Shown here in pieces: positions 677 to 63,040 of a stretch of DNA of 64,000 nucleotides; position 1 is the stretch's first letter, and every line of letters begins with the position of its first letter. A model generated the notes under the pieces. It ran no database searches, was not told the DNA's origin, and was given only the letters and a program-made list of their open reading frames with translations. A program made the translations under genes and the position numbers. The DNA is from an uncultured Bacteroidales bacterium (GTDB lineage: Bacteria > Bacteroidota > Bacteroidia > Bacteroidales > UBA3824), in NCBI GenBank assembly GCA_946409405.1, contig CAMJWL010000001.1, forward strand, positions 310 through 64,309. Reading direction: 5' to 3'.

Positions 677-868
677 AATTTGTCGTTTTTGTCAACATTG
701 CAAAAATAGTTTTTTTCTGCGGTAGTGCAAAATTTTCAGGAAAGTTTCTTTCGAGAAAAATGTGATGTCAGTCCGTGCAATTTTTGCACATATTGAACAA
801 TGCAAATAAGACGACAAAGGACGGACACTTGTACATCCGCCTTGTCTTGTACAATTGATTGACAAACG

Positions 869-1432
869 TTACAAACGGTCTATCATTTCGAGTTCGCCGC
901 TGTAAATCTGCGACCGCCAATCGTTGTTGCAATAGAAACCACAGGTATCTTGCAGTTTTTGTGCGACTTCTACGCATCTGTCGTCTCCGCCTCCGTGGAA
1001 TTTGATATGATAGCTGCCTTGTTTGCCTGGCGCAGGGTTTTCGCGGGTTACGCTAACATTCCAACCTATGGCTTTGAAGGCGTTGGAGATGGTCTGTGAG
1101 TTCGGATTCAAATAATTTCTCAAAGTCTCCATGTCAGGACATTCGATGATTTCGTCAAATGAATATTGCAAATTGCGCGGCATGAAACGTCCGTATGTAA
1201 CGGCATCATACATCTTTCGCACAAAGTCGCTCATATTGTAAATTTCGACGTTCTTACCCGAATGTACAAGTGTGTAAAACTCGTCGGCGACAGACCTCGA
1301 AACAGTTTCTATCCCCGAAAAATCGAGTAAATAACTATTATTAGGCTCAAGTGTTTTCGCAAACGATACCACCTGCGCCCTTATATGTATTCTTGCGCCG
1401 AAACGCTCTGATAGTTTTATTATTTGTTTCAT
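869..1432 (-). CDS. STAS-like (DUF4325-type) domain protein with an uncharacterised C-terminal extension
   Basis: The N-terminal ~90 aa (YLLDFSGIETVSRSVADEFYTLV) match the DUF4325/STAS-like pattern. The start lies 13 nt after the stop of the upstream GHKL ATPase gene. Confidence 0.7.
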   Translation of the reverse strand: MKQIIKLSERFGARIHIRAQVVSFAKTLEPNNSYLLDFSGIETVSRSVADEFYTLVHSGKNVEIYNMSDFVRKMYDAVTYGRFMPRNLQYSFDEIIECPDMETLRNYLNPNSQTISNAFKAIGWNVSVTRENPAPGKQGSYHIKFHGGGDDRCVEVAQKLQDTCGFYCNNDWRSQIYSGELEMIDRL

Positions 1433-1445
1433 TGCTTCACTTTTT

Positions 1446-2252
1446 TTATATATATTCGTAAATATTGAAATTTTCTGGCATTTTCAGAGGTATTTCCGCA
1501 AAAACTAATGTTCCACTCCATTCTGTTTGTTCCGGCATTGATAATATTATCTTCGAGCCTTTGTTGCATAGCATCAACGCCGATCCTGACAAAATGTACA
1601 TACTGCCATTTAAGCCATTAGTTATCATATTGATATTTTTTGAAATTCCATAACCTCTGTTTTCTGCCTCAGGAAGGTTTTTAGTAGAATATCCGTCTTT
1701 TGCCAACGCTATTGCTTTTGCGTCGCTATCGCCGATGCGGTCAATATATAAATTCTTTTGGACATAACTTCCAAGGATTGATATTCCGTTGTCTGCGATA
1801 CAAACGTCAATTACATTTTTCCCGGGGGGACGCCAATAGTACAATAACCCCTTTTGTGCTTTTGAATGTTCTTTGATATTGTCTGTTATTTCAGCGACAA
1901 ATAGTTTTATCGGGTTCATATTCAAATTACCAATTCCATTCAGAAATTCAGTCAATTTGTCATCTGCCTTTTCTAAATTGGCTTCATCTATATCAAAAAT
2001 ATAATCAGTAATATGGGTTGACAATACCTTGTGTCCACAATTGCTACAATAAAATTCAAGACAGGCATTGAATAGTTTATTGTTTACGTTCCGATTGTCA
2101 ACGGTTACGATACTACCATTCGATGTTATCAGAGCAATAGCATCAAAAAAATTGACAAATACTTTTCTAAAAGGTATATTGTCTCCCATTTCTGAAATTA
2201 TAACCGTATGTCCCATTTCGTTTTCAGTGTATTCTCGCCCCAAAGATAACAT
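1446..2252 (-). CDS. GHKL (histidine-kinase-like / SpoIIAB-like) ATPase
   Basis: N-box EITDNIKEHS, G1 box ADNGISILG and G2 box RGYGISKNI are present. The track ORF begins at a TTG (2330). I prefer ATG at 2252 (MLSLGREY...); ATG at 2216 is also possible. Confidence 0.7.
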   Translation of the reverse strand: MLSLGREYTENEMGHTVIISEMGDNIPFRKVFVNFFDAIALITSNGSIVTVDNRNVNNKLFNACLEFYCSNCGHKVLSTHITDYIFDIDEANLEKADDKLTEFLNGIGNLNMNPIKLFVAEITDNIKEHSKAQKGLLYYWRPPGKNVIDVCIADNGISILGSYVQKNLYIDRIGDSDAKAIALAKDGYSTKNLPEAENRGYGISKNINMITNGLNGSMYILSGSALMLCNKGSKIILSMPEQTEWSGTLVFAEIPLKMPENFNIYEYI

Positions 2253-2386
2253 ATAAAGTTTATATCTGCAAAAAATGTTTTTAAGTATTCGAAATTTCTT
2301 TGGTCGTAGGCGATGAAACGTTTGCCGCAAAGCGCAAACTGGGGATTTTTTTTGCTGTGGAATATGATTTGTAATATGGAGGTAGA

Positions 2387-3739
2387 TTATGAGTTTAGTG
2401 CAATGCGAAATCCATCACAATTTGTACAATTACCTGGATATTGATTATGACGTTCAAACGCATTGCAATATTGCTTTGATTCGAAATAGCAACTGCCGCG
2501 TAGAACTCGATAGTATCCGATTTCATTAGGGCTACCATCAGTGGGTGTATTCTCATAATTACTTTTTCCATCCCAAGCATCTTGACACCATTCACAGACA
2601 TTTCCTAACATATCATAAATACCAAGCCTATTAGGTTGTTTTTCTCCAACACGGTGTGTTTCTCCATTGGAATTCTGTTGATACCAAGCAGTTTTTTCTA
2701 TATTTATATTTCTATGCAGTTTTGAAAAAAGACTTTTCCCACCTTGCGCAGCATATTCCCATTCGGCTTCTGTCGGTAATCTAAAACCGTTTTTAGAATA
2801 ATCTGCAGTAACCGTTGCTTCAATTATTGATTCATTTTTGTATGTCTTATTTTCTATTGTATAAACTTTTTGCATATTTAGCCCTTCGCTCAACCTATTG
2901 CAAAATAAAATAGCGTCATACCATGTTACATTTTCCACTGGATATTTGCCACCTTTATTATTTTTACTTGGATTATACCCCATTATTAATAACCATAGTC
3001 CTTGTGTTACTTGAGTTCCTGCTATAAAGTAACTTGAAATGCTTTTTTCAACTTGATTTGTTTCATTACCCATAATAAATTTACCACCTTTAACATAAAT
3101 CATTGTAAAAGGATATGGGATTGGGAAATCACGATTCTTGCTAAATAATTTTTTAATCTTTGTATATGCGTCAATAATATAATTTGTTTTGTAATATTTT
3201 CTTATTTGCTTGACATAATTATCTAAATCTATGTCGTGTTTGATGTCTCCTAAAACACAACGTATTTTTTTTATTTCTTTCAAATAAAAACCATTCTTTT
3301 TTGCAGCGTTTTCTATTTCAGAATGATTATTGAATTGTTTGTATGATTCTCTTTTGTTTTCCCAAAATTTAATCAGTTTATCAACGAAAGTGTTGTCCAA
3401 TTTAAAATTGCCGCTTTTTATAGGTAGTAATAATCTCTGCCTAATAAGGAATCTGAACTTCATTATTTGTGAATATTCATACATACAATGTTCCGAATAA
3501 AAATATTTTTCACTAAGAACCAATACAATACACTTTCCTTTTTTGCCAATTTCTTTCTCAAATGCAGAGATACTATCTCCCGGTTGTAAATCGTCCATAT
3601 CAATTTTACAATCAAAACCTTCTCTATCTAATTTCTTTTCTAATTCATATGCAATGTCGGCAATATGTTCATATCCAATAGCATTATTATCATTCCTTGC
3701 ATACGAAAAATATACTGGATTCCCTTTATTGATACTCAT
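2387..3739 (-). CDS. TIR domain fused to an FGE-sulfatase (SUMF1/EgtB/PvdO-type) domain
   Basis: The N-terminus (PVYFSYARND...DDLQPGDSI...CIVLVLSEKYFYSEHCMYEYSQI) follows the TIR pattern. The C-terminal half has FGE-sulfatase hallmarks: VTWYDAILFCNRLS, RLPTEAEWEYAAQGG, GNVCEWCQDAW, RVLRGSCYF, GFRIAL. Confidence 0.85.
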   Translation of the reverse strand: MSINKGNPVYFSYARNDNNAIGYEHIADIAYELEKKLDREGFDCKIDMDDLQPGDSISAFEKEIGKKGKCIVLVLSEKYFYSEHCMYEYSQIMKFRFLIRQRLLLPIKSGNFKLDNTFVDKLIKFWENKRESYKQFNNHSEIENAAKKNGFYLKEIKKIRCVLGDIKHDIDLDNYVKQIRKYYKTNYIIDAYTKIKKLFSKNRDFPIPYPFTMIYVKGGKFIMGNETNQVEKSISSYFIAGTQVTQGLWLLIMGYNPSKNNKGGKYPVENVTWYDAILFCNRLSEGLNMQKVYTIENKTYKNESIIEATVTADYSKNGFRLPTEAEWEYAAQGGKSLFSKLHRNINIEKTAWYQQNSNGETHRVGEKQPNRLGIYDMLGNVCEWCQDAWDGKSNYENTPTDGSPNEIGYYRVLRGSCYFESKQYCNAFERHNQYPGNCTNCDGFRIALNS

Positions 3740-3755
3740 TTTTTCAACTTTTTAA

Positions 3756-3797
3756 ATCATAACCCCAAGATTGCCGTACACATATTGGGGTTATGAT
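3756..3797 (-). terminator. 13-bp perfect stem-loop between the dynamin module and the TIR gene (possible terminator, attenuator or processing site)
   Basis: ATCATAACCCCAA (3756-3768) is the exact reverse complement of TTGGGGTTATGAT (3785-3797), with a 16-nt loop. On the minus-strand RNA only UU follows, so it is not a canonical U-tract terminator. Confidence 0.4.
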
Positions 3798-3810
3798 TGT
3801 TATTCCTTTT

Positions 3811-5895
3811 TTACTTCTCTATTCCCATCTCCGCCATGTGTTTCTTCACCTCTGCGCTTTCGGCTTTCAACTTGTCGAGAAGGGCCTTGGCTTCGGCGAT
3901 GGCTTTGGCTTTGTTTGCCATCTTGCTTTGGATTTCGTCGATTTGGTTCTCCAAATCCGTCAAAATGCCCTCGGTATAGACTCCTTTGACGGCAGCAATG
4001 GTTCTCGCTCTACCATTCTCCAAACATGAGTTTAGATACGGCTCGAAATCATAACTGTTTTGAACTTTGTTTATGGTGCTTTTGATTTCCGTCACAAATG
4101 AATTGTGACTGAACCTATTGGCCAATTTGTCAAACAAACCGAAAGTTGCTCCAGTTAGGAAACCCTCAATAATAGCCCCAAATGCAGATTGTTCTTCAGA
4201 ATTGCTTGTATCAATTGGCTCAAAAATGTCGCCATTTTCGATGTCGATTTCGATTTTACGCTGAGCTTCTTTGGCAAGATCTTCCATCTCAACATCGGGT
4301 ATGTATTTGCCACATACCCTTCCCGCCTCGCTGAAAAAATCGCGAACTAACTCGTGCAATTTTTTCTTCATTTCCTGCACGATTTTGTTCATAAGACGTT
4401 TCAACGTTCTCGTATTCAAGATGTTCACTGTGGAGTCAAGTTGCGGTCTAATCACTTCAACATCATCCCATTTACTCCAATCATCGACAATTCTATTTAG
4501 TTGTTTGCATGCAGAATCCACCGCATTTTCCAAATCTTGTCTTCCTGTGTCAATGATGTCAGTCAAGCCGCCACCTGACGAAGAGATTTCCTCCTCCAAA
4601 CCATCAATTTTTTTGCCCAAACGGCTTTTTGCCTTGGAAATTTTTTCCTTCTTCTCGTCGAGATCCTCATCAGAAGTGTTGTAGAGTTTTATGCTGGTTT
4701 CCGTGGTGGCAACTTGCTTGGCAAGGTCTTCCAAACGTTTGGCTGCTGCAGCTTTTACGGCGTTAAGCGGTTTCTTGAACATGATTTCTGCCTTCTCTTT
4801 TTCTATCATGTCCTTGATGGCGGCTATGAGGTCGCCGATGTGGCTTTTCTCGGCAAACTGCTTGTAGTTGCTGATTTCAAAAGTGCCGCAGTGCCTGTCC
4901 CATGCGAATTTATAGGATTCGTTGGACGTGATTTTCGGCATGTCCTTTTCGGCAATTTTTGAGAGCAACGCCATTTCCGCCGACAACGGAATCGGTTCGG
5001 TATCTTTCAGGATTTCCGCCAATGTAGCATCGCCACATTCCTTGCTTGCATTGCGCAGTTCTTTCTTGACGTAATCCTTGATTTCGTCTTCTTTTTCGCC
5101 CTTTTCGTAGGCAAGGTCGTACTTGTTGATGCCAATCAAGACTTTGCCAATGCCGCACTTGCGGACATTCTCAAATAGGATTGTCCGGTCTGTTGCGTCG
5201 AATGCACGACCAGCAAATAGCAACATCACCACCACGTCCGCTTTTACAAGGAAATCTTTTGTGCGCTCCTCGCGCGAAACAATCGGGTCGTTGAAACCGG
5301 GAGTGTCAACTATCTCTACACCTTTCAGATACTCTTTCGGGTAGTAAATTGTTACCGATTTAGTGATGGAAACAAACTTGCCGTCCGCTCCCACGTATTC
5401 CACCAAATTATCGAAGGAATCCTCTTGGGTTTTGCCCAAATACTGCGACAGACTGCCGCCGAGTTTACGGGACTTGTCCACGAGTTCCTGTGCCGCCTGA
5501 ATTTTGGATTTCTCCAATTCGCTTGCGTCGTCAGTGCTTCTGGATGCCAAGGCTTTCTGCTCCTCCCAATCGTTGGTGCTGTAAAAATCAGCCACGATTT
5601 TTTTCTGCTCGCCGTAAGTGATTTTGGAGAGCGCGGCGGTCATCGGCGTAGTAGCCGCCGGAAGCACGTCCTCTTCAAACACAAAGGCATTCAGGAACGT
5701 CGATTTGCCGCACTTCATCTGTCCAATGACGCCGATGGTCAGCGTGTCCTGATTGATTTTTGCAATCAAATCATCGGCGGTCTTGCTGTTTTTGGCATCG
5801 TCAGAATCAAACCATTTGAACTCTTTGGCTTTCGTTACCATCGAAATCAAATCCTGCTTCTTCTGATGCAGTTCCTCAAAAATGTTCTGTGCCAT
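3811..5895 (-). CDS. dynamin-like GTPase C (soluble BDLP/LeoA-like architecture)
   Basis: G1 GVIGQMKCGKSTFLNA, G2 region TTPMTA, G3 DTPGFND, G4 INKYD, then a ~450-aa helical stalk. The start overlaps the upstream stop as TAATG. Confidence 0.85.
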   Translation of the reverse strand: MAQNIFEELHQKKQDLISMVTKAKEFKWFDSDDAKNSKTADDLIAKINQDTLTIGVIGQMKCGKSTFLNAFVFEEDVLPAATTPMTAALSKITYGEQKKIVADFYSTNDWEEQKALASRSTDDASELEKSKIQAAQELVDKSRKLGGSLSQYLGKTQEDSFDNLVEYVGADGKFVSITKSVTIYYPKEYLKGVEIVDTPGFNDPIVSREERTKDFLVKADVVVMLLFAGRAFDATDRTILFENVRKCGIGKVLIGINKYDLAYEKGEKEDEIKDYVKKELRNASKECGDATLAEILKDTEPIPLSAEMALLSKIAEKDMPKITSNESYKFAWDRHCGTFEISNYKQFAEKSHIGDLIAAIKDMIEKEKAEIMFKKPLNAVKAAAAKRLEDLAKQVATTETSIKLYNTSDEDLDEKKEKISKAKSRLGKKIDGLEEEISSSGGGLTDIIDTGRQDLENAVDSACKQLNRIVDDWSKWDDVEVIRPQLDSTVNILNTRTLKRLMNKIVQEMKKKLHELVRDFFSEAGRVCGKYIPDVEMEDLAKEAQRKIEIDIENGDIFEPIDTSNSEEQSAFGAIIEGFLTGATFGLFDKLANRFSHNSFVTEIKSTINKVQNSYDFEPYLNSCLENGRARTIAAVKGVYTEGILTDLENQIDEIQSKMANKAKAIAEAKALLDKLKAESAEVKKHMAEMGIEK

Positions 5896-7928
5896 TATTT
5901 CAGTTCGTTAAATTCTTTGATTTTCTTTTTCAGGTTTTCCTGAATTTCGGTGATGCGTTTGTTTCGTGATTCGTTAGTTCCTTTGTCGTCATACAAACTA
6001 AGCATCTCGATAACGGCTTTTTTGTACGGAAGGAAATTTTCATTCCACAAATTTATCACACCGTTAGAGATTGCATACTGTTTGTTACAGATTGCTTTCA
6101 GTTTGTATTGCAGAGAGTTGTATTCCGACTTTGAAAATTCAATAACATCATCTCTGAACCACTTTTCTTCATATGTTCCATAATCTGAAGCGGCTTCGCA
6201 ATCGTTTTTACAGTCTGCGCAATCGTCAGTAATATTGTCAACGATGTTGCTAATATTGTTGAAAAGTTCGTCCACTCTTTTATCTGACGCATCGCATTTT
6301 GAGATTGATTCCTGACAAGCCTGATTACATAGCCCCACCAAGTCGTTGACCCATTCTTGGACATCTTTCAAATAGCCACTTGTGTCATTGGAACGAGGAA
6401 CACTTTTTATAGTGTTCATTAGTTCATCGAAGTATTTCTGCCCTACCTTGTCCGACGATGAGAATCTGATGAATTTTTGAACAGATACACCTTCGTTTGA
6501 CAATGTACGTTGGATGAGGTTCTCCACTTGCTGTACATCTCTGTCCGATTTTGTATCAACCTTGTTGATAACCACATAAAGCGGTTTCCCCAAATGCTCT
6601 TTTATCACTTTGATGGATGATTTGTTTACTGTACCCGCATTAACATCGAATACCCAAAACAAAGCATCACACTCGTTGATAACATCAATTGTCCTTTGCG
6701 CATCCTCAGAATCATTGGAATTGAAACCAGGAGTATCCAATATGCTGAGATTGTTGAGGTTGCTGTTCTTGTATTCCATCACAAAATATTTCAGCATCGC
6801 CGAAACACCGTCAACCTCGTCCAACACTTCTTTGTTGATTTTCATGAATGTTTCTTTGCTCATTTGTTTCAATACATTGTCTGGCGAAACAAACTGAAAT
6901 TTATCAATATTTCCTCCAGTGATGTACGTGGGAATTGCGGTTGTCGCTTTGGCACTTACGGGTAGTTTTGCTGTATTGGAATCTCCCTGAGACAGAATCC
7001 TGTTTACAATGGACGTTTTGCCCGCCGAAAATTCGCCCACAAAGGCAATCGCCGTTTTGTTGGCAATCCACTTTTTGCGGCTTGTCGCAGCCCAATCTAA
7101 TGCCCCGAAAAAATAGTATTTCTCGTGGTCATGTAGATTTTCGTTGGAATCTTCAGGCCTTTGCAAACATTCCAAAACCCACGGATATAGTTGTTCCAAA
7201 ATTATGTCCTGAATGTCGTCGATTACATCGTACAATTTGGACATTTGGCTACCGCTTTGGGTTGCCTTTGCCGTCAGCACTTCTTTTACAAATGCCAATG
7301 ATTCTTTTTTTAGTTCCGCCGACCTTTCCGCATCTTTAAGGTCCACCGAAAGCGTTTGCACCTGTTCGTTTGCCGCTTCCAAATCTTTCTTCGACTTCCT
7401 CAAATCGTCTTCGATTTGTTTTTTTTGTTCCTCAAGTTTGCGTTTTTCTTTTTTCAACTTGTCGTTGAAATCCTCTTCCAAATCATCTTTCTCTTCCTCC
7501 AAGTCGGAGATTTTCTTTTTGAGTTTTTTGATTTCGTCAGAAGCCGATGCATCAACTTTGCCTTGCTGTGCGTTTTGCAGACGCTTGTCGAGGTCTTTGT
7601 TTTCGGACTCGAGTTGTGAGAGTTTCTTCTGCAAATCTGCTTTCTCTTTATTAAGAGAATCAATTTGCTCCTGTTGTGCTATTGATTGTGTAGCGTTGCC
7701 CTTGGATTCGAGGTTTTTCAGTTGCGTCAGCAATTCGTTTTTCTCTTTGTTGAGAGCATCGAGTTGTTTTTGCAACGCATCAGTTTTGGCATTCGTTTTT
7801 ACCTCAGCCAATTTCCTGTTAGAATCGGACGCAGAAAGTTGGTTGTTGTTTTTTGGCTTAATGAATATCAACGCCAAGCCGAAACCCGCCACAATGCAAC
7901 AGATGAATGCTATTGTCGTTGTTGCCAT
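5895..7928 (-). CDS. dynamin-like GTPase B with an N-terminal TM helix and a long coiled coil
   Basis: TM helix IAFICCIVAGFGLALIFI, then ~200 aa of K/E/L/Q coiled coil. GTPase motifs follow: G1 GEFSAGKTS (aa 298-306), ATTAIPT, G3 DTPGFNS, G4 INKVD. The start overlaps the upstream stop as TAATG. Confidence 0.85.
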   Translation of the reverse strand: MATTTIAFICCIVAGFGLALIFIKPKNNNQLSASDSNRKLAEVKTNAKTDALQKQLDALNKEKNELLTQLKNLESKGNATQSIAQQEQIDSLNKEKADLQKKLSQLESENKDLDKRLQNAQQGKVDASASDEIKKLKKKISDLEEEKDDLEEDFNDKLKKEKRKLEEQKKQIEDDLRKSKKDLEAANEQVQTLSVDLKDAERSAELKKESLAFVKEVLTAKATQSGSQMSKLYDVIDDIQDIILEQLYPWVLECLQRPEDSNENLHDHEKYYFFGALDWAATSRKKWIANKTAIAFVGEFSAGKTSIVNRILSQGDSNTAKLPVSAKATTAIPTYITGGNIDKFQFVSPDNVLKQMSKETFMKINKEVLDEVDGVSAMLKYFVMEYKNSNLNNLSILDTPGFNSNDSEDAQRTIDVINECDALFWVFDVNAGTVNKSSIKVIKEHLGKPLYVVINKVDTKSDRDVQQVENLIQRTLSNEGVSVQKFIRFSSSDKVGQKYFDELMNTIKSVPRSNDTSGYLKDVQEWVNDLVGLCNQACQESISKCDASDKRVDELFNNISNIVDNITDDCADCKNDCEAASDYGTYEEKWFRDDVIEFSKSEYNSLQYKLKAICNKQYAISNGVINLWNENFLPYKKAVIEMLSLYDDKGTNESRNKRITEIQENLKKKIKEFNELK

Positions 7929-8323
7929 TATTCTTTGTCTTTAAGTTGTTTGAGTTGAATTTGCAGAACTTCGCAGTTCTCTTTGTACTCCTTGACCTTG
8001 CGTTCAAGTTCCTCGTTCTGCAAGGTGAGGCTCTTGATTTTGCTCTTTGCCGAGTCAAGTTCGTCCTCCAAGTCATCCTTGGAATTGTCTGTGTCTTTGA
8101 ATTTTGCTCGCAGTTTTTTGTTCTCGGCAATCAAGTCTTCCTCCTTACGCTCCAAATCCTTATTGCGGTTGCGGAATTTCTCGTTCTCTGCAAGCACTTC
8201 ATCCAACTGCGACTGCAAAGAGTTTTTCTCTTTGTTGCCGCCCATGATTTTGTCTTTCAAGGCAATGCCGGTTGCTGCGCCCGCTACAAAGCCTACTACT
8301 GCTCCTATCATGCTGAATCTCAT
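7928..8323 (-). CDS. membrane-anchored coiled-coil protein (glycine-zipper TM helix, YtxH-like N-terminus)
   Basis: 131 aa: IGAVVGFVAGAATGIAL followed by an uninterrupted K/E/L heptad-like sequence. It lies 4 nt after the DLP-A stop and overlaps the DLP-B start. Confidence 0.7.
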   Translation of the reverse strand: MRFSMIGAVVGFVAGAATGIALKDKIMGGNKEKNSLQSQLDEVLAENEKFRNRNKDLERKEEDLIAENKKLRAKFKDTDNSKDDLEDELDSAKSKIKSLTLQNEELERKVKEYKENCEVLQIQLKQLKDKE

Positions 8324-8327
8324 TGAA

Positions 8328-10118
8328 TTAGTTAGTTAATAATTGTTTCTTGTATTCTTTGAGTTTCGACATTTTTGCGTCAAACTCCTGTTGTGATTGC
8401 TGTTGTTTGCGCTTCAAGTCATCAAGCGCATTGTTCATTTGGTCGAAAGTCTCCTGAACTTCGTTGCAAAGCGACTGCCTGATAGCGTCCACCACGGCGG
8501 CAGAAATCCTTTGCATTTCGCTCTTGAACTGCGGCAACAATGTGTTGTCCAAGTAGTTGTGGATGGCACGGCGGCGTTGCGGCTTACCCATAGTCTTGTC
8601 CGTTACCCAACCTACGGCGGATTCGATGATACCCTTGTTTTGTCCAAGTTGCTGACCGACATTTTGGTTGTAGTTTTCGATGGCGGTGTGCTGCTGATTG
8701 TAGTTTTTCTGCAACTGTTCCATCCGAGACATTGTTTTTTGGTTGGATGCAATGGAAGCAACATCTGTTACTGTGTCTGCTACGTCCGCTGCTGTGTCTA
8801 TCGCTGCCGCCGCCCCACCTGCTGCCGCTGCTGTTCCTGCCGTTGCAGCTACAAGTATCGCGGTTCCTGCCACTTTAACGCCATTTGCAATCCAATTGTC
8901 GTACTCGTGCCCCGCGCTGTTCAAATCGACGTTGTACGAAATGCCCGAAATTTGCAGACCGTTCATGTCGAGGTTTTCTATCGTGCGGAGTGTCAGGCTG
9001 TCGTCGGAGTTTCGCGTTTGGCGAGCCTTTTCGGTCAGAATGTTTTGGACACTGAGTTTAAAGTCGTTAAGCAACAAAGAAGATGTGTTGTTGATGGCGT
9101 TAACTGCCTCTGCGTCATAGTTTTTGCTGCTGCCAGTCGCAATGGCTTCGAGCCTTGCAAAGATTTCGTCCTCAAAGCGGTGCGAAATATCCCGTTTCAA
9201 TTTGTCGACGTTTGATGCCATCGAATCCACGAGTTTGTCTATTTTGCGGTGAAAATCCTCCAAATCGCGTTTCTGACGACGCACTGCCTCGTCAAAACCG
9301 CCCTCTACGGCGGTAGAGGCAATGAGTTGGTCGATGCGCTCTGCCAACGACTTTGTGAGGTTGGCTGTCCTCTGTTCACAAACTTTTTTCAAGATAGAGT
9401 TTTTGTCCGTCTGAATCTTTGCAAACAGCGCGTACATCTCGTCCAAATCGCCTTTGTCAGCAGATACGCACGCAATCTGATTGATTGGAATGTTGCAGTT
9501 TTTGCCAATGTATTCTTTTGCCGCCTTTACGTCCGCTGGCGACTTGGTGTCGCACTTTGTTATAATGAGATATACGGGACGTTTAGACAGTTCGGACTCC
9601 TTGATGAAGTCGGTCAACGATTTGGTAATCTGTTGGTTGACATCAACGGTCAGGAATATGCCGTCCGCTTGTGGCAGAAAGTCTGTGAGGACTTCGCGGT
9701 GTTTCCTTTCGGGTGACGAAAGACCGGGTGTATCCACTATTACCGTTGATGAAGGAACTTTGGTAGATGTGTCGAATACATTGATGATTTGTGCGTCCTT
9801 GTACACGTCGTTTTTAAGGTCGGCAATGTCGTCAACCTGAGTTTCTTTGCCGTCTTCAAAAACCGTTGCGCAACACTTTTCGCATCCAAAATGGATTACG
9901 TAAATTGTTGCAGTAGTGGGTTTTGTAGCCGTTTCCAACTTTTTGCTGTCGGTCAGGGCGTTAATCAGGGACGTTTTGCCCGATGAAAATTCGCCCACCA
10001 ATGGCAGTACCAAAAGGCTGTTTTCGTCAGAGAGTTTTTTGCTGACGTTTTCTGCCTCCGCCGTCAAATCAGAAAATCCCAATTCTTGGGAGATTTCCAA
10101 GATTTTGTCTATGTTCAT
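8328..10118 (-). CDS. dynamin-like GTPase A with an internal Ala/Gly-rich hydrophobic paddle
   Basis: G1 VGEFSSGKTS (nt 9969-9998 checked by hand), PTTATIY, G3 DTPGLSS, G4 ITKCD. A hydrophobic segment (VKVAGTAILVAATAGTAAAAGGAAAAI) sits within the stalk. Confidence 0.85.
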   Translation of the reverse strand: MNIDKILEISQELGFSDLTAEAENVSKKLSDENSLLVLPLVGEFSSGKTSLINALTDSKKLETATKPTTATIYVIHFGCEKCCATVFEDGKETQVDDIADLKNDVYKDAQIINVFDTSTKVPSSTVIVDTPGLSSPERKHREVLTDFLPQADGIFLTVDVNQQITKSLTDFIKESELSKRPVYLIITKCDTKSPADVKAAKEYIGKNCNIPINQIACVSADKGDLDEMYALFAKIQTDKNSILKKVCEQRTANLTKSLAERIDQLIASTAVEGGFDEAVRRQKRDLEDFHRKIDKLVDSMASNVDKLKRDISHRFEDEIFARLEAIATGSSKNYDAEAVNAINNTSSLLLNDFKLSVQNILTEKARQTRNSDDSLTLRTIENLDMNGLQISGISYNVDLNSAGHEYDNWIANGVKVAGTAILVAATAGTAAAAGGAAAAIDTAADVADTVTDVASIASNQKTMSRMEQLQKNYNQQHTAIENYNQNVGQQLGQNKGIIESAVGWVTDKTMGKPQRRRAIHNYLDNTLLPQFKSEMQRISAAVVDAIRQSLCNEVQETFDQMNNALDDLKRKQQQSQQEFDAKMSKLKEYKKQLLTN

Positions 10119-10183
10119 ACTATGGTTTAGTTAAGTGTATCCTAAAATTTGCCTTTTCTCTGACCTCGTTGTGAAAGGAAAAA

Positions 10184-10206
10184 TTTACCAGATTTTGCCT
10201 ACAAAG
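10184..10206 (+). repeat. copy 1 of the 22-23-nt motif TTTACCAGATTTT(G)CCTACAA(A/G)G
   Basis: tttaccagattttgcctacaaag, preceded by AAAAA as in copy 2. It lies between the small ORF stop (10262) and the DLP-A start (10118). Confidence 0.85.
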
Positions 10207-10261
10207 AGAAAGTCAATTTTCTTATTGTTTCGCTGCAAAAATTTTGCCGATTCTTGCGGTT

Positions 10262-10483
10262 TTAGCCGATTCTTTCCGATTCCAAAATCACTCCGTTCAA
10301 TGCCCGCATCTCCTGCAAATCCACGCCATAGACGCGCAGGAAGGCATCGCGGACGAGTTGACCTCCGTTGATTAGAATGGGATCGGCGAGAATCATCGAC
10401 GACACTTGGACGCTCATACCAGGTTCAAGTACCTGACCAGCAGTGTACCATTGTTTCTTTACTGTTATTTTGTACAGTGCCAT
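10262..10483 (-). CDS. small conserved-looking protein (73 aa; possibly the Bacteroidales DUF6140-type family, unverified)
   Basis: I place the start at ATG 10483 (MALYKITVKK...). The track ORF extends to 10630, but that extension covers motif copy 3 and leader sequence. The gene is same-strand, 143 nt upstream of DLP-A. Confidence 0.6.
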   Translation of the reverse strand: MALYKITVKKQWYTAGQVLEPGMSVQVSSMILADPILINGGQLVRDAFLRVYGVDLQEMRALNGVILESERIG

Positions 10484-10549
10484 AATAAGTAGGTTTAAGT
10501 AATTAAACAATTGTCCTCTGTGTACAACAAAGGCGCGAAACACCTTTAT

Positions 10550-10571
10550 CCTTGTAGGAGGCTCTGGTAAA
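10550..10571 (-). repeat. copy 3 (inverted) of the 22-nt motif
   Basis: The reverse complement reads tttaccagagcctcctacaagg. It is 19/22 identical to copy 2, differing only at three central positions. Confidence 0.85.
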
Positions 10572-10680
10572 CCTTTGTCAGAGATAAAAAGAATGGTATT
10601 CCGCGCCGAAATATATTCCGCCCACGTCAACGGGCAAAACTACTTCCATTTATATCCGCATCCGCCGCCCTGACAAAAAA

Positions 10681-14611: not shown

Positions 14612-14803
14612 TTAATACAACTCCGTCGAGGGCTTGTAGGTGTTTTCTACGATGATGTAGCTTGCACTCTCGTAATGCTGTTCGTCAATCACGTTGACGG
14701 GTGCATTGTTTACCAACGTTTTCGCCCAGAGGAAGAGTTTGCTGTGCCTGTCGGCGATGCCCGTGTTGTCGGTGAAGGGCAGTTTCAATTTGATTGTTCT
14801 CAT
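14612..14803 (-). CDS. small hypothetical protein (63 aa)
   Basis: The ORF is bracketed by a candidate TTTG/TAnnTTTG promoter upstream and a hairpin plus T-run downstream. No motif recognised. Confidence 0.5.
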   Translation of the reverse strand: MRTIKLKLPFTDNTGIADRHSKLFLWAKTLVNNAPVNVIDEQHYESASYIIVENTYKPSTELY

Positions 14804-14880
14804 TTTCTTAAAAGTTTTAAAAAGTTGTTTTGAATAAAATTGTTTGTTGTTGTTTTGTAATCTGTTTTTTGATTACGTTG

Positions 14881-14912
14881 CAAAAGTATAACGATATTTT
14901 ATAACTTGCAAA
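14881..14912 (-). promoter_or_regulatory. candidate promoter TTTG-N20-TACTTTTG for the 63-aa gene
   Basis: On the minus strand: TTTG (14912-14909), a 20-nt spacer, then TACTTTTG (14888-14881). Confidence 0.4.
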
Positions 14913-15126
14913 TTTTTCTGTAATTTTTTTTCAAAAATAATATATTTTTCTATGTAATTTATATTTTGTTTTATTTTTTTATTCTTGTAGTATGGTTTAC
15001 AGATAGTTGTAGGGCATAAATTTTTATTATTTGTTAGATAGTTAAATAATGTTAACAATTTTACAAATACATTTTTATTTTTTGTGTTATAATGAAAAAA
15101 TAACGGCGCATTGGAGATTGTGTCGC

Positions 15127-15157
15127 AAAAAAAAACGCACATCTTCGGCGATGTGCG
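15127..15157 (-). terminator. rho-independent terminator of the TPR/SpoIIE gene
   Basis: 8-bp stem CGCACATC / GATGTGCG (15136-15157) with a 6-nt loop. A T9 run follows on the minus strand (A-run 15127-15135). Confidence 0.7.
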
Positions 15158-15203
15158 TGGTGGGTAGGATATTGTTTTCCAATAGGTGATAAATCGTTGG
15201 CTG

Positions 15204-17432
15204 TTACAGTTTTATGGCGAGGAAGGTGATGTCGTCGAGTTGCTGATAGCCGTTTTGCCAAGAGTCTATGGCGTTGTTGATGGCGGCGTGTTGTGTGGGG
15301 AAGGGTAGGGGAGCGAGGTCGCCTACGAGTTTAAAAAGTCTTTTTATCGAAAAATGCTTGTATTTGGAGTGCGCGTCATCGATGTAGCCAAATTGGTCGG
15401 TGATACCGTCCGAAAACATATATAATGCGTCGCCCTTGTGTATGCTTACGGTTTTTTCGTTGAAATCTTTGAAGTCGCCTACGTAAATTCCGATTGGCAT
15501 TTTGTCGTGTTTTATTTCCGTAAGTGTACCGTTGCTATAAATCCACAGCGGTCTGTACGCTCCGGCGTAGTGTAGCGTATCTGTTTCGGTGTCTATGATT
15601 ACCAGTGCGAGGTCTATGCCGTCCATGTTGACTTTTTCGCCACGGTCGTATTTTTCTTTGCTCTGTCCGAGAGCCGACATCAGGCGGCGGCGCATTTGGT
15701 TTAGTATTAGGGATGCCGAGCCGTTGTTTTCGATTACAGAGGGTGCGAGGTCGTTGAGCAGGGTGATGCCGAGCATGCTTACAAATGCGCCAGGCACGCC
15801 GTGTCCCGTGCTGTCGGCGCATACAGCCATTTTGTATTTGCCTACGCTGTCCGCCCAATAGAAGTCGCCCGCCACGATGTTGAGGGGGCGGTAGATGACG
15901 TAGTAATCGCTGAAAATTTGCTGCATCATCGCGTCGTCGGGCATTACGGAGCGTTGTATAAGGCTCGCGTAGCCTATCGAATCTTTGATTTGAAGGTTTT
16001 GCGAGGATATTTCTTCGTTTTGCTTGGCGAGTTTGTCCCTTTGGGTCAGGATTTCCTCTTGCTGCGATATGATTTCCGATTTTTGTTGCTGGAGCGTTTC
16101 GTTTTTTTCGTTGAGTTCGCGGTAATGCCTCCGCGTCCTCAATACTTCAAACACGGCGATTAGCACTCCCAAGATTAACGCCACTGAGGCAATTTGTATT
16201 ATCCTTGCCCGAAGTTGTTCGCGTTCCCTGTGCTGCTGCATTTCGTCGTCAAATTTTGCCTGCGCCATTTCCTGCGTGGTCATTATCGCGTAGTCTATGG
16301 AAGCCTGGCTGTTGACGTGTTCGTAAAATTTTGACTTATAATAATATGCATTCTTGTAGTCGTTGAGAGCCGTGTAATACCTGTCGTGCGCCAAGTATAT
16401 GTTTTCAGTGCAGTCGGTGTTTACAAAACTGCTGTCAATCCTTGCTTGCAGCGAGTCGAGGAGTGGTTTTGCTTTGTCGTATTGCTTGCCGAGCGTGTAA
16501 TAGTTTGCCTTTTGAATGTCAAATTGTATTTTCTCGCCGTTTTGGATTTTTTCGATTATTGCGTAGCCTTCGTTGATGCATTGCCACATTGTGTCGAGAG
16601 CCGATTGCAGTTGTTCCCCTTGGTAATCGTATATCGTCGCTTCTTGAAAAATCAAGTCTGCTTTTGTGCCAAGCAACTGATAGCGAGAGTATAGGAAATC
16701 GGTTTTTATCGTGTTTGCTTTGTTGATGGCCTGCCTTGCCTTGGCGATGAGGCTGGTGTTTTTTTCGGAACTCGTATGTTTGTATTGCACGATGTACAGG
16801 GTTGCAAGTCCGTCGTAGTCGTCAAGCAGGTCGTCGGTGTTGTTGTTGGCAGAGTCGAGTGCTATTGCTTTGTAATACATCTCCTCCGCCTGCCGGTACA
16901 TCTTTTGGTAAAAACAGTTTTGAGCCATCAAACTGGTGCAACGTGCGATGTATTCGGGGTCGCCCAGTTCCTCGAATAATTGCAGGGCTATGTCGTAGTA
17001 TATGTACGACTGTTTGTAGTTGCTGAGGTAACTGTAATTGTTGCCGAGCATCTCGTAGTTTTTGGCTTTGATTTTTTGGTTTCCTATCGAGTCGGCGATG
17101 ATGATAGCGCGGAAGTTGCATTGGATTGCGCTTGCGTAGTCGTCTCTGTATGAGAATGCCCACCCCTTGTACCCCCATGCCTTAGCCTCGTAATAGGCGT
17201 TGTTTTGGAGTTTGGCGAGATGCAGTTGCCTCTCTGCCCATACGAAGGTGGAGTCCACGTTGTAATGGCCTTCGGCTATCTTGTCGCAGATGCGGAGTTT
17301 GACGAGAGCGTTGTTGTCCAACTGGGAATATAGCGACACGAGGCTGTCGAGGTACGCATCGTCCTTGTCCTGTGCCGAGGCTCGCGCCGACACGGAGATT
17401 ATTAGTATCAATATGAGGACGATGTGTTTCAT
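15204..17432 (-). CDS. TPR-repeat sensor with a TM helix, coiled coil and PP2C/SpoIIE-type Ser phosphatase domain
   Basis: Signal peptide, TPR-like Y/A/N repeats, and TM helix IIQIASVALILGVLIAVF. SpoIIE core: GDFYWADSVGKYKMAVCADSTGHGVPGAFVSMLG ... SDGITDQ. Confidence 0.9.
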   Translation of the reverse strand: MKHIVLILILIISVSARASAQDKDDAYLDSLVSLYSQLDNNALVKLRICDKIAEGHYNVDSTFVWAERQLHLAKLQNNAYYEAKAWGYKGWAFSYRDDYASAIQCNFRAIIIADSIGNQKIKAKNYEMLGNNYSYLSNYKQSYIYYDIALQLFEELGDPEYIARCTSLMAQNCFYQKMYRQAEEMYYKAIALDSANNNTDDLLDDYDGLATLYIVQYKHTSSEKNTSLIAKARQAINKANTIKTDFLYSRYQLLGTKADLIFQEATIYDYQGEQLQSALDTMWQCINEGYAIIEKIQNGEKIQFDIQKANYYTLGKQYDKAKPLLDSLQARIDSSFVNTDCTENIYLAHDRYYTALNDYKNAYYYKSKFYEHVNSQASIDYAIMTTQEMAQAKFDDEMQQHREREQLRARIIQIASVALILGVLIAVFEVLRTRRHYRELNEKNETLQQQKSEIISQQEEILTQRDKLAKQNEEISSQNLQIKDSIGYASLIQRSVMPDDAMMQQIFSDYYVIYRPLNIVAGDFYWADSVGKYKMAVCADSTGHGVPGAFVSMLGITLLNDLAPSVIENNGSASLILNQMRRRLMSALGQSKEKYDRGEKVNMDGIDLALVIIDTETDTLHYAGAYRPLWIYSNGTLTEIKHDKMPIGIYVGDFKDFNEKTVSIHKGDALYMFSDGITDQFGYIDDAHSKYKHFSIKRLFKLVGDLAPLPFPTQHAAINNAIDSWQNGYQQLDDITFLAIKL

Positions 17433-19541: not shown

Positions 19542-20465
19542 ATGGAAAAAGATTTCCTTGTACGGTTTGACTTCGCGATAAAGAGCCTTCTGAGGCACAA
19601 GAAGAATTTTGACATCTTGGAGGGGTTTATCGAAGTCTTTTTGGGTAAGAAATGCACTATCGTCGATATACTTGAAAGCGAGAGCAACCAAGAGGATTCC
19701 GACGATAAATTTAATCGTGTCGATATCAAAGCGAAGGACGACAAGGGCGAGATTTTTATCGTTGAGGTTCAGACCACGCGCTACACGTATTATTTGGAAA
19801 GGGTGCTTTACGGCGTTTCCAAGGCGGTAACGGAGCAGATGAGCAGTGGCGACAAGTTTGGCGAGATACATCAGGTGTTTTCTATTTCGATAGTGTATTA
19901 CGACTTCGGCATTGGCGACGACTATTTTTACGAGTGCAAGTCGGAATTTGTGGGCGTTCACACGCACAACGTCCTTCAACTCAACAGGCGCGAGGAACTT
20001 TCTGTAGCCGAAATCGCCAATGGCGACAAACGCGAGTTCAAATATAGCAAGATAACCTCCGCCGACATTTTCCCAAAATATTATTTGATACGCATCAATT
20101 CGTTTCGCAAGGCGATAGCCAACGCTATGGACGAGTGGATGGACTTCCTCAAAAACAATAGCATCAAGCCCGACACTACCGCCCCCGGTTTGGCACAGGC
20201 TCGCGAGAAGTTGCTCTATGGACGTATGACCAACGAGGAGCGGGCGCAGTACGACCGTCATTGGATGTCGCTCCGCAACGAGGAAGAGGCGATAGAGGAG
20301 GCAGAAATCGGCGGATTGGAAAGAGGAAGGGAGCAAGGCCGCAAGGAAGGTGAAAGGCAAAAGGCCATTGATATTGCTCGCAACCTCAAAGCCGCCGGAA
20401 TCGACATCGACATCATTGCGCAGTCCACCGGACTCGCCATCAACGAAATTGCAGCCCTCGTTTAA
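19542..20465 (+). CDS. Rpn-family PD-(D/E)XK recombination-promoting nuclease / putative transposase
   Basis: FDFAIKSLLRHKKN...RVDIKAKDDKGEIFIVEVQ (PDDEXK_2 pattern) plus the typical C-terminal IDIARNLKAAGIDIDIIAQSTGL tail. Start taken at MEKDF. Confidence 0.8.
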   Translation: MEKDFLVRFDFAIKSLLRHKKNFDILEGFIEVFLGKKCTIVDILESESNQEDSDDKFNRVDIKAKDDKGEIFIVEVQTTRYTYYLERVLYGVSKAVTEQMSSGDKFGEIHQVFSISIVYYDFGIGDDYFYECKSEFVGVHTHNVLQLNRREELSVAEIANGDKREFKYSKITSADIFPKYYLIRINSFRKAIANAMDEWMDFLKNNSIKPDTTAPGLAQAREKLLYGRMTNEERAQYDRHWMSLRNEEEAIEEAEIGGLERGREQGRKEGERQKAIDIARNLKAAGIDIDIIAQSTGLAINEIAALV

Positions 20466-62961: not shown

Positions 62962-63040
62962 TGCTGAGTGTTTGTAGTATTCCGTCAAGGCAAAAATAAA
63001 AAGAATCTTGCGAAACAAAAAAGTTTTTGTCGAAGTTTTT

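Follow-up and report, generated by a model that had tools for sequence, protein, structure and literature searches.

Introduction

The locus described here raises the question of what is achieved when an N-terminal TIR domain is joined, in a single polypeptide encoded directly downstream of a triple-dynamin operon, to a C-terminal FGE-sulfatase-type (FGS) domain, and whether such a protein operates on its own or together with its neighbours. Prokaryotic immune systems are known to use TIR domains as well as FGS sensors of lectin fold. The gene, which is referred to as TIR-FGS, was analysed within a 64-kb stretch of DNA from an uncultured Bacteroidales bacterium (the window). The reading favoured with somewhat better than even confidence is that TIR-FGS is a self-contained, one-polypeptide sensor-effector of bacterial conflict or immune type, standing alone from the dynamins.

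The gene and its reading frame

TIR-FGS is encoded by an intact open reading frame of 450 aa at 2387..3739 of the window, on the minus strand as are all features given below, with the ATG at 3739 and the TAA stop included; all the motifs quoted from it in an earlier note on this DNA are present. The public gene call P0001, 100% identical and 365 aa long, starts at Met86, so that half of the TIR domain is lost. The 450-aa reading is supported because homologue alignments begin at residue 1, with I3, N4, P8 and Y10 invariant. Since the public call cuts the TIR domain, the gene would escape automated surveys of defence systems.

Neither a signal peptide nor, by a hydropathy scan, a TM helix was found in the protein, from which it follows that both domains would be cytoplasmic and the ligand intracellular. 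An NTPase domain was found neither in TIR-FGS nor in the adjacent non-dynamin genes. The PADLOC matches of TIR-FGS are only marginal (PDC-S66, 2.7e-4; SAVED_TIR, 6.7e-4), which places the gene outside every catalogued defence system. A search of a phage database returned weak matches to the FGE domain only, with the TIR module absent, and the architecture is not described in a TIR survey paper or in a 2026 TIR preprint.

A plant-like TIR domain with a candidate catalytic glutamate

The N-terminal half is a member of the TIR superfamily with the flavodoxin-like TIR fold, as the earlier note had proposed. The domain spans approximately residues 8-186 (3182..3718) and is plant-TIR-like, including the helical alphaD-alphaE half, as seen by Pfam, profile matches, Foldseek and AlphaFold. 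The Pfam TIR family (PF01582) was matched over residues 25-170 with E 9.4e-11 and 42.3 bits against a cut-off of 21.3, and TIR_2 (PF13676) with E 4.3e-9 and 37.3 bits against a cut-off of 28. In the AlphaFold model, which was built from an alignment of only 13 sequences, residues 1-186 have pLDDT values of 70-90, and a Foldseek search with this model retrieved the TIR domains of Roq1, RPP1, RUN1 and RPS4 with probability 1.00 and target TM of 0.60-0.67 over about 185 columns. Sequence-profile matches of the TIR half were likewise to Roq1, RUN1 and RPS4, the best similarity being to plant NADase-type TIRs (E 2e-7), with TcpB at only 0.075.

The length of the domain revises one element of the earlier description, in which a linker of about 100 aa had been placed between the two domains. 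Most of that segment is the second half of the plant-like TIR, and the true inter-domain linker is confined to approximately residues 187-209 (3113..3181), where pLDDT falls below 50 and where gaps open in the alignment with TM- or GYF-bearing homologues. Unlike in most paralogues, this linker carries neither a TM helix nor a GYF domain.

The glutamate previously suggested as catalytic is Glu88 (GAA codon, 3476..3478), within an S-x-H-C-M-Y-E motif. It aligns with the Glu of C-L-D-E-L, the plant C-L-x-E motif, in RUN1 and Roq1, and position 88 is Glu in 44 of 45 family relatives, all 45 of which also carry S76, Y79, H84, C85 and M86. One of the Foldseek matches, PDB 7s2z, is by its entry title the RUN1 E100A mutant, and we take the position of E88 to be that of RUN1 E100 and SARM1 E642. 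Conservation across the family extends through residues 107-160 (I107, K108, G110, W126, E143, A146, Y152). From these alignments, the TIR domain of the window protein is probably NAD-cleaving.

A TvpA-like domain of lectin fold

Residues 212-447 (2399..3106) constitute the FGS domain, to which a C-type-lectin fold and a TvpA-like, non-catalytic character are assigned by Pfam, the match to TvpA, Foldseek and family cut-offs. The domain is complete, as had been noted before: Pfam FGE-sulfatase (PF03781) was matched with E 6.8e-35 and 121.4 bits against a cut-off of 23.3, over profile positions 4-254 of 255. Over the C-terminal 217 residues, TvpA (PDB 2y3c) was matched with E 8.2e-42, against 3e-10 for true FGEs. 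The same entry was the top Foldseek match of the domain (E 1.8e-11), with CarF and FGE structures also among the matches; residues 335-450, the C-terminal 115 or so, are poor in the AlphaFold model (pLDDT <50).

The Cu-binding catalytic cysteines of FGEs lie five residues apart (C336 and C341 of the human enzyme). In an alignment to the S. coelicolor FGE (6muj), the first of the two corresponds to E420 and only the second is retained (C425), a state shared with TvpA, which fits a non-catalytic reading. Because the catalytic pair is incomplete, identity as a formylglycine-generating enzyme of SUMF1 type was ruled out. Identity as EgtB, OvoA, SenA, PvdO or GldK-PorK was ruled out as well, with scores far below the NCBIfam cut-offs: EgtB 47.1 against 360, PvdO 48.3 against 500, SenA 33.3 against 420, OvoA 20.6 against 400 and GldK 69.3 against 350, the enzymatic and structural equivalogs of the superfamily other than OvoA giving 33-92 bits against cut-offs of 350-544. 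Judged by these comparisons, the FGS domain is a predicted non-enzymatic, TvpA-like domain of lectin fold, in agreement with the earlier suggestion of a sensor-type domain in place of a sulfatase-maturation, EgtB or PvdO enzyme, and it would be expected to bind a ligand.

A receptor-like family in rumen Bacteroidales

Among 1.84 billion representative proteins, 52 clusters belong to the TIR-module family at E<=1e-30, and the genomic loci of the family all come from rumen Bacteroidales MAGs (35/35), with up to 7 copies per MAG, including tandem pairs and fragments. The module is fused to a range of partners: FGE (7), GYF_2 (4), Lcl_C (3), TPR (3), NB-ARC (2), LRR, Sel1 and DUF285, NB-ARC being carried by only 2 of 46 members. 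Of 39 members, 25 have a TM helix behind the module, and in these TM paralogues the TIR is placed on the cytoplasmic side because of positive-inside charge. Read from the sequences, the part that the family conserves is the TIR module; in most paralogues a TM helix comes next, and beyond it interchangeable domains that face outward. The window TIR-FGS is a soluble variant of this small, receptor-like family. The earlier note contained neither the connection to TvpA and DGRs nor the TIR module as a conserved unit.

The surroundings of the homologues are heterogeneous and island-like, not metabolic operons, a point on which the earlier proposal had been made to depend. Near the family members, many of the genes have ordinary housekeeping functions and are not known for defence. 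No recurrent partner gene able to act as a signal receptor was found among the family loci, and direct NAD+ depletion is therefore favoured over the production of a signal.

Some bacterial TIR proteins are not NADases but modulators of host signalling or scaffolds. TIR-FGS might be a non-immune protein, such as an adaptor or scaffold, a component of surface or adhesion signalling, or a TLR modulator of TcpB/TcpC type, with its lectin-like domain binding rumen glycans. Such a role would be in keeping with the extracellular C-terminal domain of most paralogues, with partner domains that are also common in adhesins (Lcl_C, LRR/BspA, Sel1, Big), with family neighbours that are mostly housekeeping or glycan-utilisation genes, and with the presence of TcpB among the weak TIR matches. 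However, the candidate catalytic Glu and its surrounding motif are nearly invariant in the family, the plant NADase-type TIRs match better than TcpB, a secretion signal is missing and the TIR is cytoplasmic, and the rise in copy number, the tandem arrays, the pseudogenes and the variable presence between strains are what would be expected of conflict genes. A non-immune function is considered unlikely on this balance, and a sensor-effector of conflict type remains the preferred reading.

The copy number, the tandem pairs and the shuffling of domains form a pattern that is typical of immune receptors. A broader and more tentative proposal, held to be possible though by no means probable, is that the TM-TIR paralogues of rumen Bacteroidales, together with the soluble window copy, make up an undescribed repertoire of pattern-recognition receptors in which an envelope cue leads to NAD+ cleavage. 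Each TM paralogue would combine a cytoplasmic, catalytically competent TIR and a single TM helix with extracytoplasmic lectin folds (FGS or Lcl_C), LRR, Sel1 or unknown folds. The cue could be phage adsorption, the effector of a competitor or a foreign glycan, and cytoplasmic variants such as the window TIR-FGS would sense intracellular ligands.

A variable cassette downstream of a dynamin operon

The genes upstream of TIR-FGS match PADLOC LeoA (2e-20) and LeoBC (7e-12), and the last dynamin gene is separated from TIR-FGS by 71 nt (3740-3810). The strong hairpin reported in this gap was recovered at 3755..3798 (14-bp stem, dG -21 kcal/mol, z -4.4), with 0 of 200 shuffles folding equally well, and so was the difference in base composition, the GC of the gene being 0.31 against 0.43 and 0.39 in its flanks. 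In two relatives of the dynamin operon (L040, L042), unrelated strong hairpins occupy the same position. The hairpin has no U-tract and was not flagged by a terminator scan, and no canonical Bacteroidetes promoter is visible in the gap; for these reasons, TIR-FGS may be co-transcribed with the dynamin operon.

Through alignment and synteny with a relative whose dynamin is 94% identical (L038), it was found that TIR-FGS is carried by a strain-variable cassette of about 1.52 kb (2273..3790). Window and relative are identical outside these coordinates and unrelated inside them, with sharp boundaries, the cassette being replaced by about 0.79 kb of unrelated sequence. The boundary runs through the hairpin, whose 5' arm belongs to the conserved flank and whose remainder is inside the cassette. 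TIR-FGS is present in none of the seven dynamin-operon relatives with readable sequence past the last dynamin, a count from which L045 was left out because its sequence ends inside that gene. In the six relatives the slot always holds a co-oriented gene, and its cargo differs in all of them (unrelated ORFans, a Sel1 protein, a YhcG nuclease), mostly without a Pfam match. Thus, the triple-dynamin (LeoA/LeoBC-like) operon is conserved and is followed by an insertion hotspot, and TIR-FGS is a cassette in this hotspot instead of a fixed part of the operon.

The absence of the cassette from so close a relative argues for independence from the dynamins, and is stronger evidence than that on which the earlier note had based the same view. 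That note had also allowed TIR-FGS to serve the dynamin genes, or neighbouring GHKL/STAS genes, as their effector arm, a suggestion for which no support was obtained: when all window neighbours were searched by tblastn, neither the dynamins (within ±10 kb) nor the downstream genes p294 and p187 were found in any of the 37 homologue loci. The identity of p294 with GHKL proteins and of p187 with DUF4325/STAS proteins is putative, matches to these families being absent from Pfam, NCBIfam, PADLOC and PDB sequences even at E<=10.

In a further version, an Eleos-like (LeoA/LeoBC) triple-dynamin core would act with any gene in the slot, and TIR-FGS would be its variable arm, either effector or sensor. 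The LeoA and LeoBC matches of the upstream genes speak for this, as do the constant presence of a co-oriented slot gene, which begins only 14 and 5 nt past the dynamin stop in L043 and L044, and a gap with neither a clear promoter nor a U-tract. Against these observations stand the 0/37 loci of TIR-module relatives with a dynamin within ±10 kb, the lack of a common theme in the slot cargo, the strong hairpin between the dynamin and TIR-FGS genes, with unrelated strong hairpins at that place in L040 and L042, and the sharp fall in GC. This version is regarded as quite improbable, and the standalone sensor-effector is retained.

The variable segment and the DGR question

The resemblance to TvpA, a DGR variable protein and the best structural relative of the FGS domain, carries a further implication. 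TIR-FGS might be, now or recently, the target of a DGR acting in trans, with the C-terminal segment of its FGS domain rewritten from a distant template repeat; in the literature, FGS sensors are often DGR-linked, with the TR sometimes elsewhere in the genome. The segment in question comprises residues 416-442 (2414..2494), between RVLRG and GFRIAL, a stretch that we place at the variable region of TvpA. No other part of the domain varies as much, mean column identity being 0.50 here against 0.69-0.82 elsewhere, and 18 of the 27 codons of the segment are NNY, against 212 of 423 (p=0.07), the value for L010 being p=0.03; in these two genes the excess is weak, and in the window segment it is not significant.

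Against this, no template repeat was found in the 64-kb window, either by a generic repeat search or when the last 260 nt were compared with both of its strands in an adenine-tolerant scan, the best candidate having 9 non-A mismatches in 60 nt, and no RT was detected by Pfam among the window ORFs scanned. Self-BLAST with a mismatch-composition filter gave no TR/VR pair in 45 related loci, the RVT family is absent from the recurrent neighbours of the family, and an RT or DGR template repeat occurs in 0/37 homologue loci. A DGR target in cis was ruled out, with no TR in the window or the related loci and no RT among the window ORFs scanned, and diversification in trans is judged very unlikely.

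Finally, the reading of TIR-FGS as a metabolic FGE-superfamily enzyme, active in sulfatase maturation or in chemistry of ergothioneine, ovothiol or pyoverdine type and only incidentally carrying a TIR-like domain, is effectively refuted: its support, a full-profile Pfam match and weak matches to EgtB, PvdO, SenA and OvoA, is set against equivalog scores of 20-48 bits where 360-500 are required, the change of the first catalytic Cys to Glu, the lack of a DinB or iron-binding N-domain, and the lack of sulfatase or biosynthetic genes either recurring near the family or beside the window gene.

Proposed mechanism and significance

As a standalone sensor-effector, TIR-FGS would be set off by the binding of an intracellular ligand, such as a protein of a phage or a macromolecule bearing glycans or other modifications, to its FGS domain. 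The protein would then cluster, and the clustered TIR domains would assemble composite active sites, by which NAD+ could either be consumed, so that growth stops or the infection is aborted, or be turned into a nucleotide signal. In this scheme we infer the NADase activity, the ligand-triggered oligomerisation and the immune role alike.

If confirmed, TIR-FGS would provide a tractable bacterial model for the activation of TIR NADases by a ligand without the need of an NTPase, and its relatives a model for the evolution of receptor repertoires through domain shuffling instead of hypermutation. The layout of the family, with a cytoplasmic TIR, one TM helix and a swappable outward domain, suggests that a signal is relayed through the membrane to an enzymatic TIR; were this true, the TM-TIR repertoire would represent a bacterial functional analogue of the Toll-like receptors. 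In addition, the hotspot downstream of the dynamin operon indicates a site where rumen Bacteroidales collect variable cargo, which may be related to defence.

Comparison with known systems

Eleos (LeoA/LeoBC) is the system whose models are matched by the neighbours, but TIR-FGS is no described component of it and is not accompanied by dynamins at other loci. In Thoeris ThsB, TIR-STING, TIR-SAVED, PycTIR, SPARTA TIR-APAZ and SpbK, the TIR domain is an NAD+-consuming or signal-producing antiphage module, and SpbK has the one-protein sensor-effector design that is proposed for TIR-FGS. TIR-FGS differs from these bacterial systems by having no ThsA, CD-NTase, cyclase or Argonaute partner and by a sensor domain of another kind; the Thoeris model was not among the PADLOC matches at E<0.01 for TIR-FGS or its neighbours.

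The plant TIR NADases RUN1, Roq1, RPP1 and RPS4 are the best profile and fold matches of the window TIR, and they share with it the S-x-[WH]-C-[LM]-x-E motif and a length of about 170-185 aa that includes alphaD-alphaE. The identity, however, is only about 17-21%, the NB-ARC-LRR is replaced by a lectin-fold sensor, and the activity of the window protein is predicted. The Toll-like and IL-1 receptors resemble most paralogues in having a single TM, a cytosolic TIR and a variable extracytoplasmic domain (LRR in one paralogue). In the paralogues, by contrast, the order is reversed, with the TIR N-terminal, and the enzymatic Glu is kept, so that the likeness is one of architecture without sign of common descent; the window TIR-FGS differs additionally by having no TM helix.

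TvpA (Treponema denticola variable protein 1) shares with the FGS domain the lack of the FGE catalytic Cys pair and the retention of the second Cys. It is nevertheless a stand-alone DGR target without a TIR, whereas the window FGS is fused behind an effector with no TR or RT within reach. Closest in concept are the FGS conflict systems. Kaur, Burroughs, Iyer and Aravind proposed FGS as an invader-sensing lectin domain placed C-terminal to effectors that include TIR (eLife 2020, 2021), and DGR-diversified STAND/CLec "antigen sensors" have been described since (PNAS 2024, PMC10907252). The systems in these reports are built around an NTPase (STAND or the vWA-MoxR ternary system), often with a linked DGR, and show enrichment in multicellular cyanobacteria, actinobacteria and Chromatiales; TIR-FGS comes from gut Bacteroidales, and no NTPase, partner genes or DGR were found for it. 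What they have in common is the syntax, an N-terminal effector such as TIR followed by a C-terminal FGS or CLec domain, and the proposed logic, in which an invader-binding lectin domain licenses the effector. Therefore, while the known FGS-effector fusions act via an NTPase switch, often with DGR hypermutation, TIR-FGS would represent the minimal and direct joining of such a sensor to a TIR.

Reading frame and domain architecture

The TIR-FGS gene lies on the minus strand at 2387-3739 as an uninterrupted ORF of 450 aa with an ATG start. All motifs quoted in the earlier note were found in it, and the TIR plus FGE-sulfatase architecture was confirmed. Over the curated Pfam cut-offs, the protein matched TIR (PF01582, aa 25-170, E 9.4e-11), TIR_2 (E 4.3e-9) and FGE-sulfatase (PF03781, aa 212-447, E 6.8e-35, covering profile positions 4-254 of 255). 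The public gene call for the same sequence, P0001, has 365 aa and begins at Met86; half of the TIR domain is thereby lost, with the segment that leads up to the catalytic motif, and automated defence-gene surveys would therefore miss it. The 450-aa reading is the right one, because homologues align from residue 1. Neither a TM helix nor a signal peptide was found in the protein. Conclusions on its architecture and genomic context are drawn with high confidence.

In the AlphaFold model, aa 1-186 have a pLDDT of 70-90, and the model can be superposed on whole plant TIR domains across ~185 columns with a target TM of 0.60-0.67. Most of the stretch previously described as a ~100-aa linker proved to be TIR, as judged by the Pfam match to aa 170, this superposition and the family-wide conservation of residues 107-160; the disordered linker is restricted to about aa 187-209. 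A profile of the N-terminal module retrieved plant NADase-type TIRs as top matches, with Roq1 (1.9e-7) and RUN1 (2.2e-5) followed by RPV1 and RPS4, and much weaker matches to TcpB and animal adaptor TIRs. The family motif S-x-H-C-M-Y-E aligns on the plant S-x-W-C-L-x-E-L, so that Glu88 falls on the catalytic Glu, E100 in RUN1; the title of the RUN1 entry PDB 7s2z names the E100A mutant. The candidate catalytic Glu proposed earlier is thus substantiated, being Glu in 44 of 45 relatives recovered from genomes, across which S76, Y79, H84, C85 and M86 are invariant.

Among solved structures, TvpA was by a wide margin the closest relative of the FGE-type domain (E 8.2e-42 over 217 residues, vs about 3e-10 for genuine FGEs), which was also the top Foldseek match (1.8e-11). 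When aligned with the FGE of S. coelicolor, the domain has Glu420 at the first catalytic Cys position, and the second is kept as Cys425, as it is in TvpA. The C-terminal half is a non-catalytic C-type-lectin-fold ("FGS") domain with a predicted binding role. Identity as EgtB, PvdO, SenA, OvoA or GldK was rejected, with NCBIfam equivalog scores of 20-70 bits against cut-offs of 350-500.

A family with a constant TIR module

The module HMM identified ~45 ORFs in 35 loci from 13 MAGs (maximum 7 per MAG), all of them ruminant-gut Bacteroidales. An exhaustive HMMER search of 1.84 billion representative proteins gave 52 clusters at E<=1e-30, vs 3,294 generic TIRs at E<=1e-3. The TIR module is the constant part and the C-terminal part is variable: among 46 members, Pfam recognised FGE-sulfatase (7), GYF_2 (4), Lcl_C (3), TPR (3), NB-ARC (2) and LRR, Sel1, DUF285 and Big (1 each), and many C-terminal domains had no Pfam recognition. 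Tandem pairs with different C-terminal domains occur in at least seven loci (L003, L004, L006, L009, L021, L023 and L025) and fragmented copies in L030, L036 and L037, which suggests rapid birth-and-death turnover. Looser TIR_2-FGE fusions beyond the tight family (P0074, P0086, P0103 and P0111) indicate that the TIR and FGE combination arose more than once.

A single TM helix follows the module in 25 of the 39 members having a substantial C-terminal part. Lys+Arg averaged 4.0 in the TIR-side flank vs 1.6 on the far side, and in 22 of 26 cases the TIR side had the higher positive charge. The positive-inside rule would place the TIR of these paralogues in the cytoplasm, with the variable domain facing outward, and the family may represent transmembrane TIR receptors with shuffled ectodomains. 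Within a limited literature search, no description of a TIR-TM-variable-domain family was found, and this family of possible receptors is a more interesting lead than the TIR-FGS gene alone. The TIR-FGS protein belongs, with P0010, P0013 (GYF-containing) and P0140, to the soluble minority of FGE-bearing members.

Family genes have mixed surroundings, with 165 Pfam families represented among 117 neighbouring ORFs, and only AAA-ATPase_like/PDDEXK_9, AAA_14, TPR and AbiEii recur. The commonest non-family neighbour is AAA-ATPase_like/PDDEXK_9 (PF09820/PF08011), in 6 of the 117 ORFs and with two copies beside the gene of protein P0012; AbiEii toxin genes adjoin TIR-module genes twice. Loci listed for either neighbour are L006, L010, L012, L015, L024, L028, L035 and the P0012 contig. 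No sulfatase, EgtB or RT context was found among the 117 ORFs, so the metabolic-operon setting that the earlier note had weighed against its reading was not seen.

Proposed mechanism

An immune NADase mechanism is proposed for the TIR-FGS protein with moderate confidence. The FGS domain would bind a ligand, binding would lead to self-association, and the TIR domains would form composite active sites around Glu88 that cleave NAD+. The TIR-FGS protein would need a cytoplasmic ligand; most paralogues would meet theirs outside the cytoplasm and relay the signal through the single TM helix. Direct NAD+ depletion is favoured over second-messenger signalling because no recurrent partner able to read a TIR-made signal was observed; it is possible that such a signal is read by a receptor encoded elsewhere. 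The gene is a plausible candidate defence gene of recognisable type; PADLOC gave no convincing model for the protein.

Genomic context

Upstream of the TIR-FGS gene lie three GTPases with matches to Dynamin_N and to the LeoA and LeoBC (Eleos) models of PADLOC. The conserved dynamin module (3811-10630) runs DUF6140 protein, dynamin (596 aa), 131-aa coiled-coil/TM protein, dynamin (677 aa) and dynamin (694 aa). It is syntenic at 43-94% identity in the relatives L038, L040, L042, L044 and L045, which are contigs from metagenomes of rumen and human gut; L040 has the 677-aa dynamin in an additional copy. Downstream, also on the minus strand, lie p187 (869-1432) and p294 (1446-2330), neither of which gave a hit in sequence searches of Pfam, NCBIfam, PADLOC and PDB, permissive thresholds included; the GHKL and DUF4325/STAS labels given them in the earlier note were not confirmed.

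The suggestion that the TIR serves as effector arm of the dynamin genes or of p294/p187 was not supported: homologues of any window neighbour were found in none of 37 loci with TIR-FGS relatives (35 from the genome scan with the TIR-module profile and 2 from contig look-ups). Nor was a TIR-FGS gene found in eight metagenomic loci with relatives of the last dynamin, seven of them readable past that gene and L045 ending inside it. In L038, a near-identical relative, the last dynamin is 94% identical and the order htpG-p460-DUF6140-dynamin×3-p294-p187 is the same, with a dynamin-to-p294 spacing of only about 0.7 kb. Outside an interval bounded by ~2272 and ~3791 the two DNAs are identical, and inside it they are unrelated; this replaced interval measures 1.52 kb in the window vs 0.79 kb in L038, where it holds a different 192-aa ORF. 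The same slot carries other cargo in L040, L042, L043 and L044. This hotspot extends from the last dynamin gene to a conserved 71-aa zinc-ribbon gene (169-384), spanning ~700-3790 in the window, 8788-9550 in L038, 10098-10865 in L040, 10957-11613 in L042, 4140-4600 in L043 and 4952-8987 in L044. Its genes differ per relative and are co-oriented (ORFans of 100-255 aa, a Sel1-repeat protein and a YhcG/DUF1016 PD-(D/E)XK nuclease), the p294/p187 pair being confined to the window and L038. Because of the sharp L038 boundaries, the varying cargo and the lack of shared neighbours in relatives, the TIR-FGS gene is a cassette that varies between strains within a hotspot, and it does not count among the conserved components of the dynamin system.

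The 71-nt gap behind the upstream dynamin gene contains a hairpin with a 14-bp outer stem (3755-3798; dG -21 kcal/mol, z -4.4, no shuffle equally stable), and the GC content of the TIR-FGS gene is 0.31 vs 0.43 and 0.39 in its flanks; both the strong hairpin and the deviating base composition described in the earlier note were borne out. A functional link with the dynamin system has a low probability. It would agree with the co-orientation of the slot gene with the dynamins in every case, its start 5-14 nt past the dynamin stop in two relatives, and the failure to see a canonical Bacteroidetes promoter on inspection of the 71-nt gap, but L040 and L042, too, have a strong hairpin of unrelated sequence behind the dynamin stop. 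The gene lies ~10 GC points under its flanks; for most paralogues at other loci the difference is 0-5 points. The strain-variable cassette may have been acquired recently from a donor of lower GC.

In L038, the p294 homologue (9468-10375, aligned to window 1446-2252) falls in two overlapping frames, seen as two tblastn segments, and its ORF stops after 146 aa, pointing to either a pseudogene with a frameshift or a fault in the assembly. From this alignment, the true start of p294 is likely ATG 2252, not TTG 2330.

Tests for DGR diversification of the FGS domain

TvpA is a Treponema DGR variable protein, and a DGR was tested for because TvpA-like FGS domains are classic DGR targets. When the last 260 nt were compared with both window strands in an adenine-tolerant scan, the best match still had 9 non-A mismatches in 60 nt, and a generic repeat search of the window returned nothing. 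Self-BLAST with a mismatch-composition filter, applied to the window and all fetched loci, recovered nothing beyond a palindrome and a tandem repeat at a contig end, and no reverse transcriptase was present among the window ORFs scanned. A DGR acting in cis was rejected, as the window searches gave no TR-like repeat or RT. Action in trans, with the TR elsewhere in the genome, is improbable. The VR-equivalent segment (aa 416-442) is the most variable part of the FGS domain (mean column identity 0.50 vs 0.69-0.82), and the NNY-codon excess that AAY mutagenesis predicts is weak (p=0.07).

Other genes of the window

The other genes are housekeeping (HtpG, MurC-like ligase, Dxr, glycogen synthase/phosphorylase, NAD(P)HX repair), together with SpoIIE phosphatases and an RHS/FG-GAP giant. 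Conflict-type genes at 20462-24883, 27237-33047 and 61204-63018 are unrelated to the TIR-FGS gene. A 1,473-aa ORF with no Pfam match adjoins a 1,936-aa FG-GAP/RHS-repeat protein, and a Schlafen AlbA_2 + HATPase_c_4 + wHTH gene lies close to the window end. A sharp low-GC patch (0.29) with strong GC skew at 14750-15250 lies just downstream of a SpoIIE/TPR phosphatase gene (15204-17432, minus strand), overlapping its 3' end.

Comparison with known systems

FGS/CLec, TvpA-like domains are described as invader-sensing modules C-terminal to effectors, TIR included; they sit in STAND or vWA-MoxR systems, are frequently diversified by DGRs and are over-represented among multicellular bacteria (Kaur et al. 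eLife 2020, 2021; PMC10907252). Whereas the TIR-FGS protein has no NTPase, partners or DGR and its host is a gut Bacteroidales, it has the same syntax and the same presumed logic as the FGS systems of Kaur and PNAS 2024.
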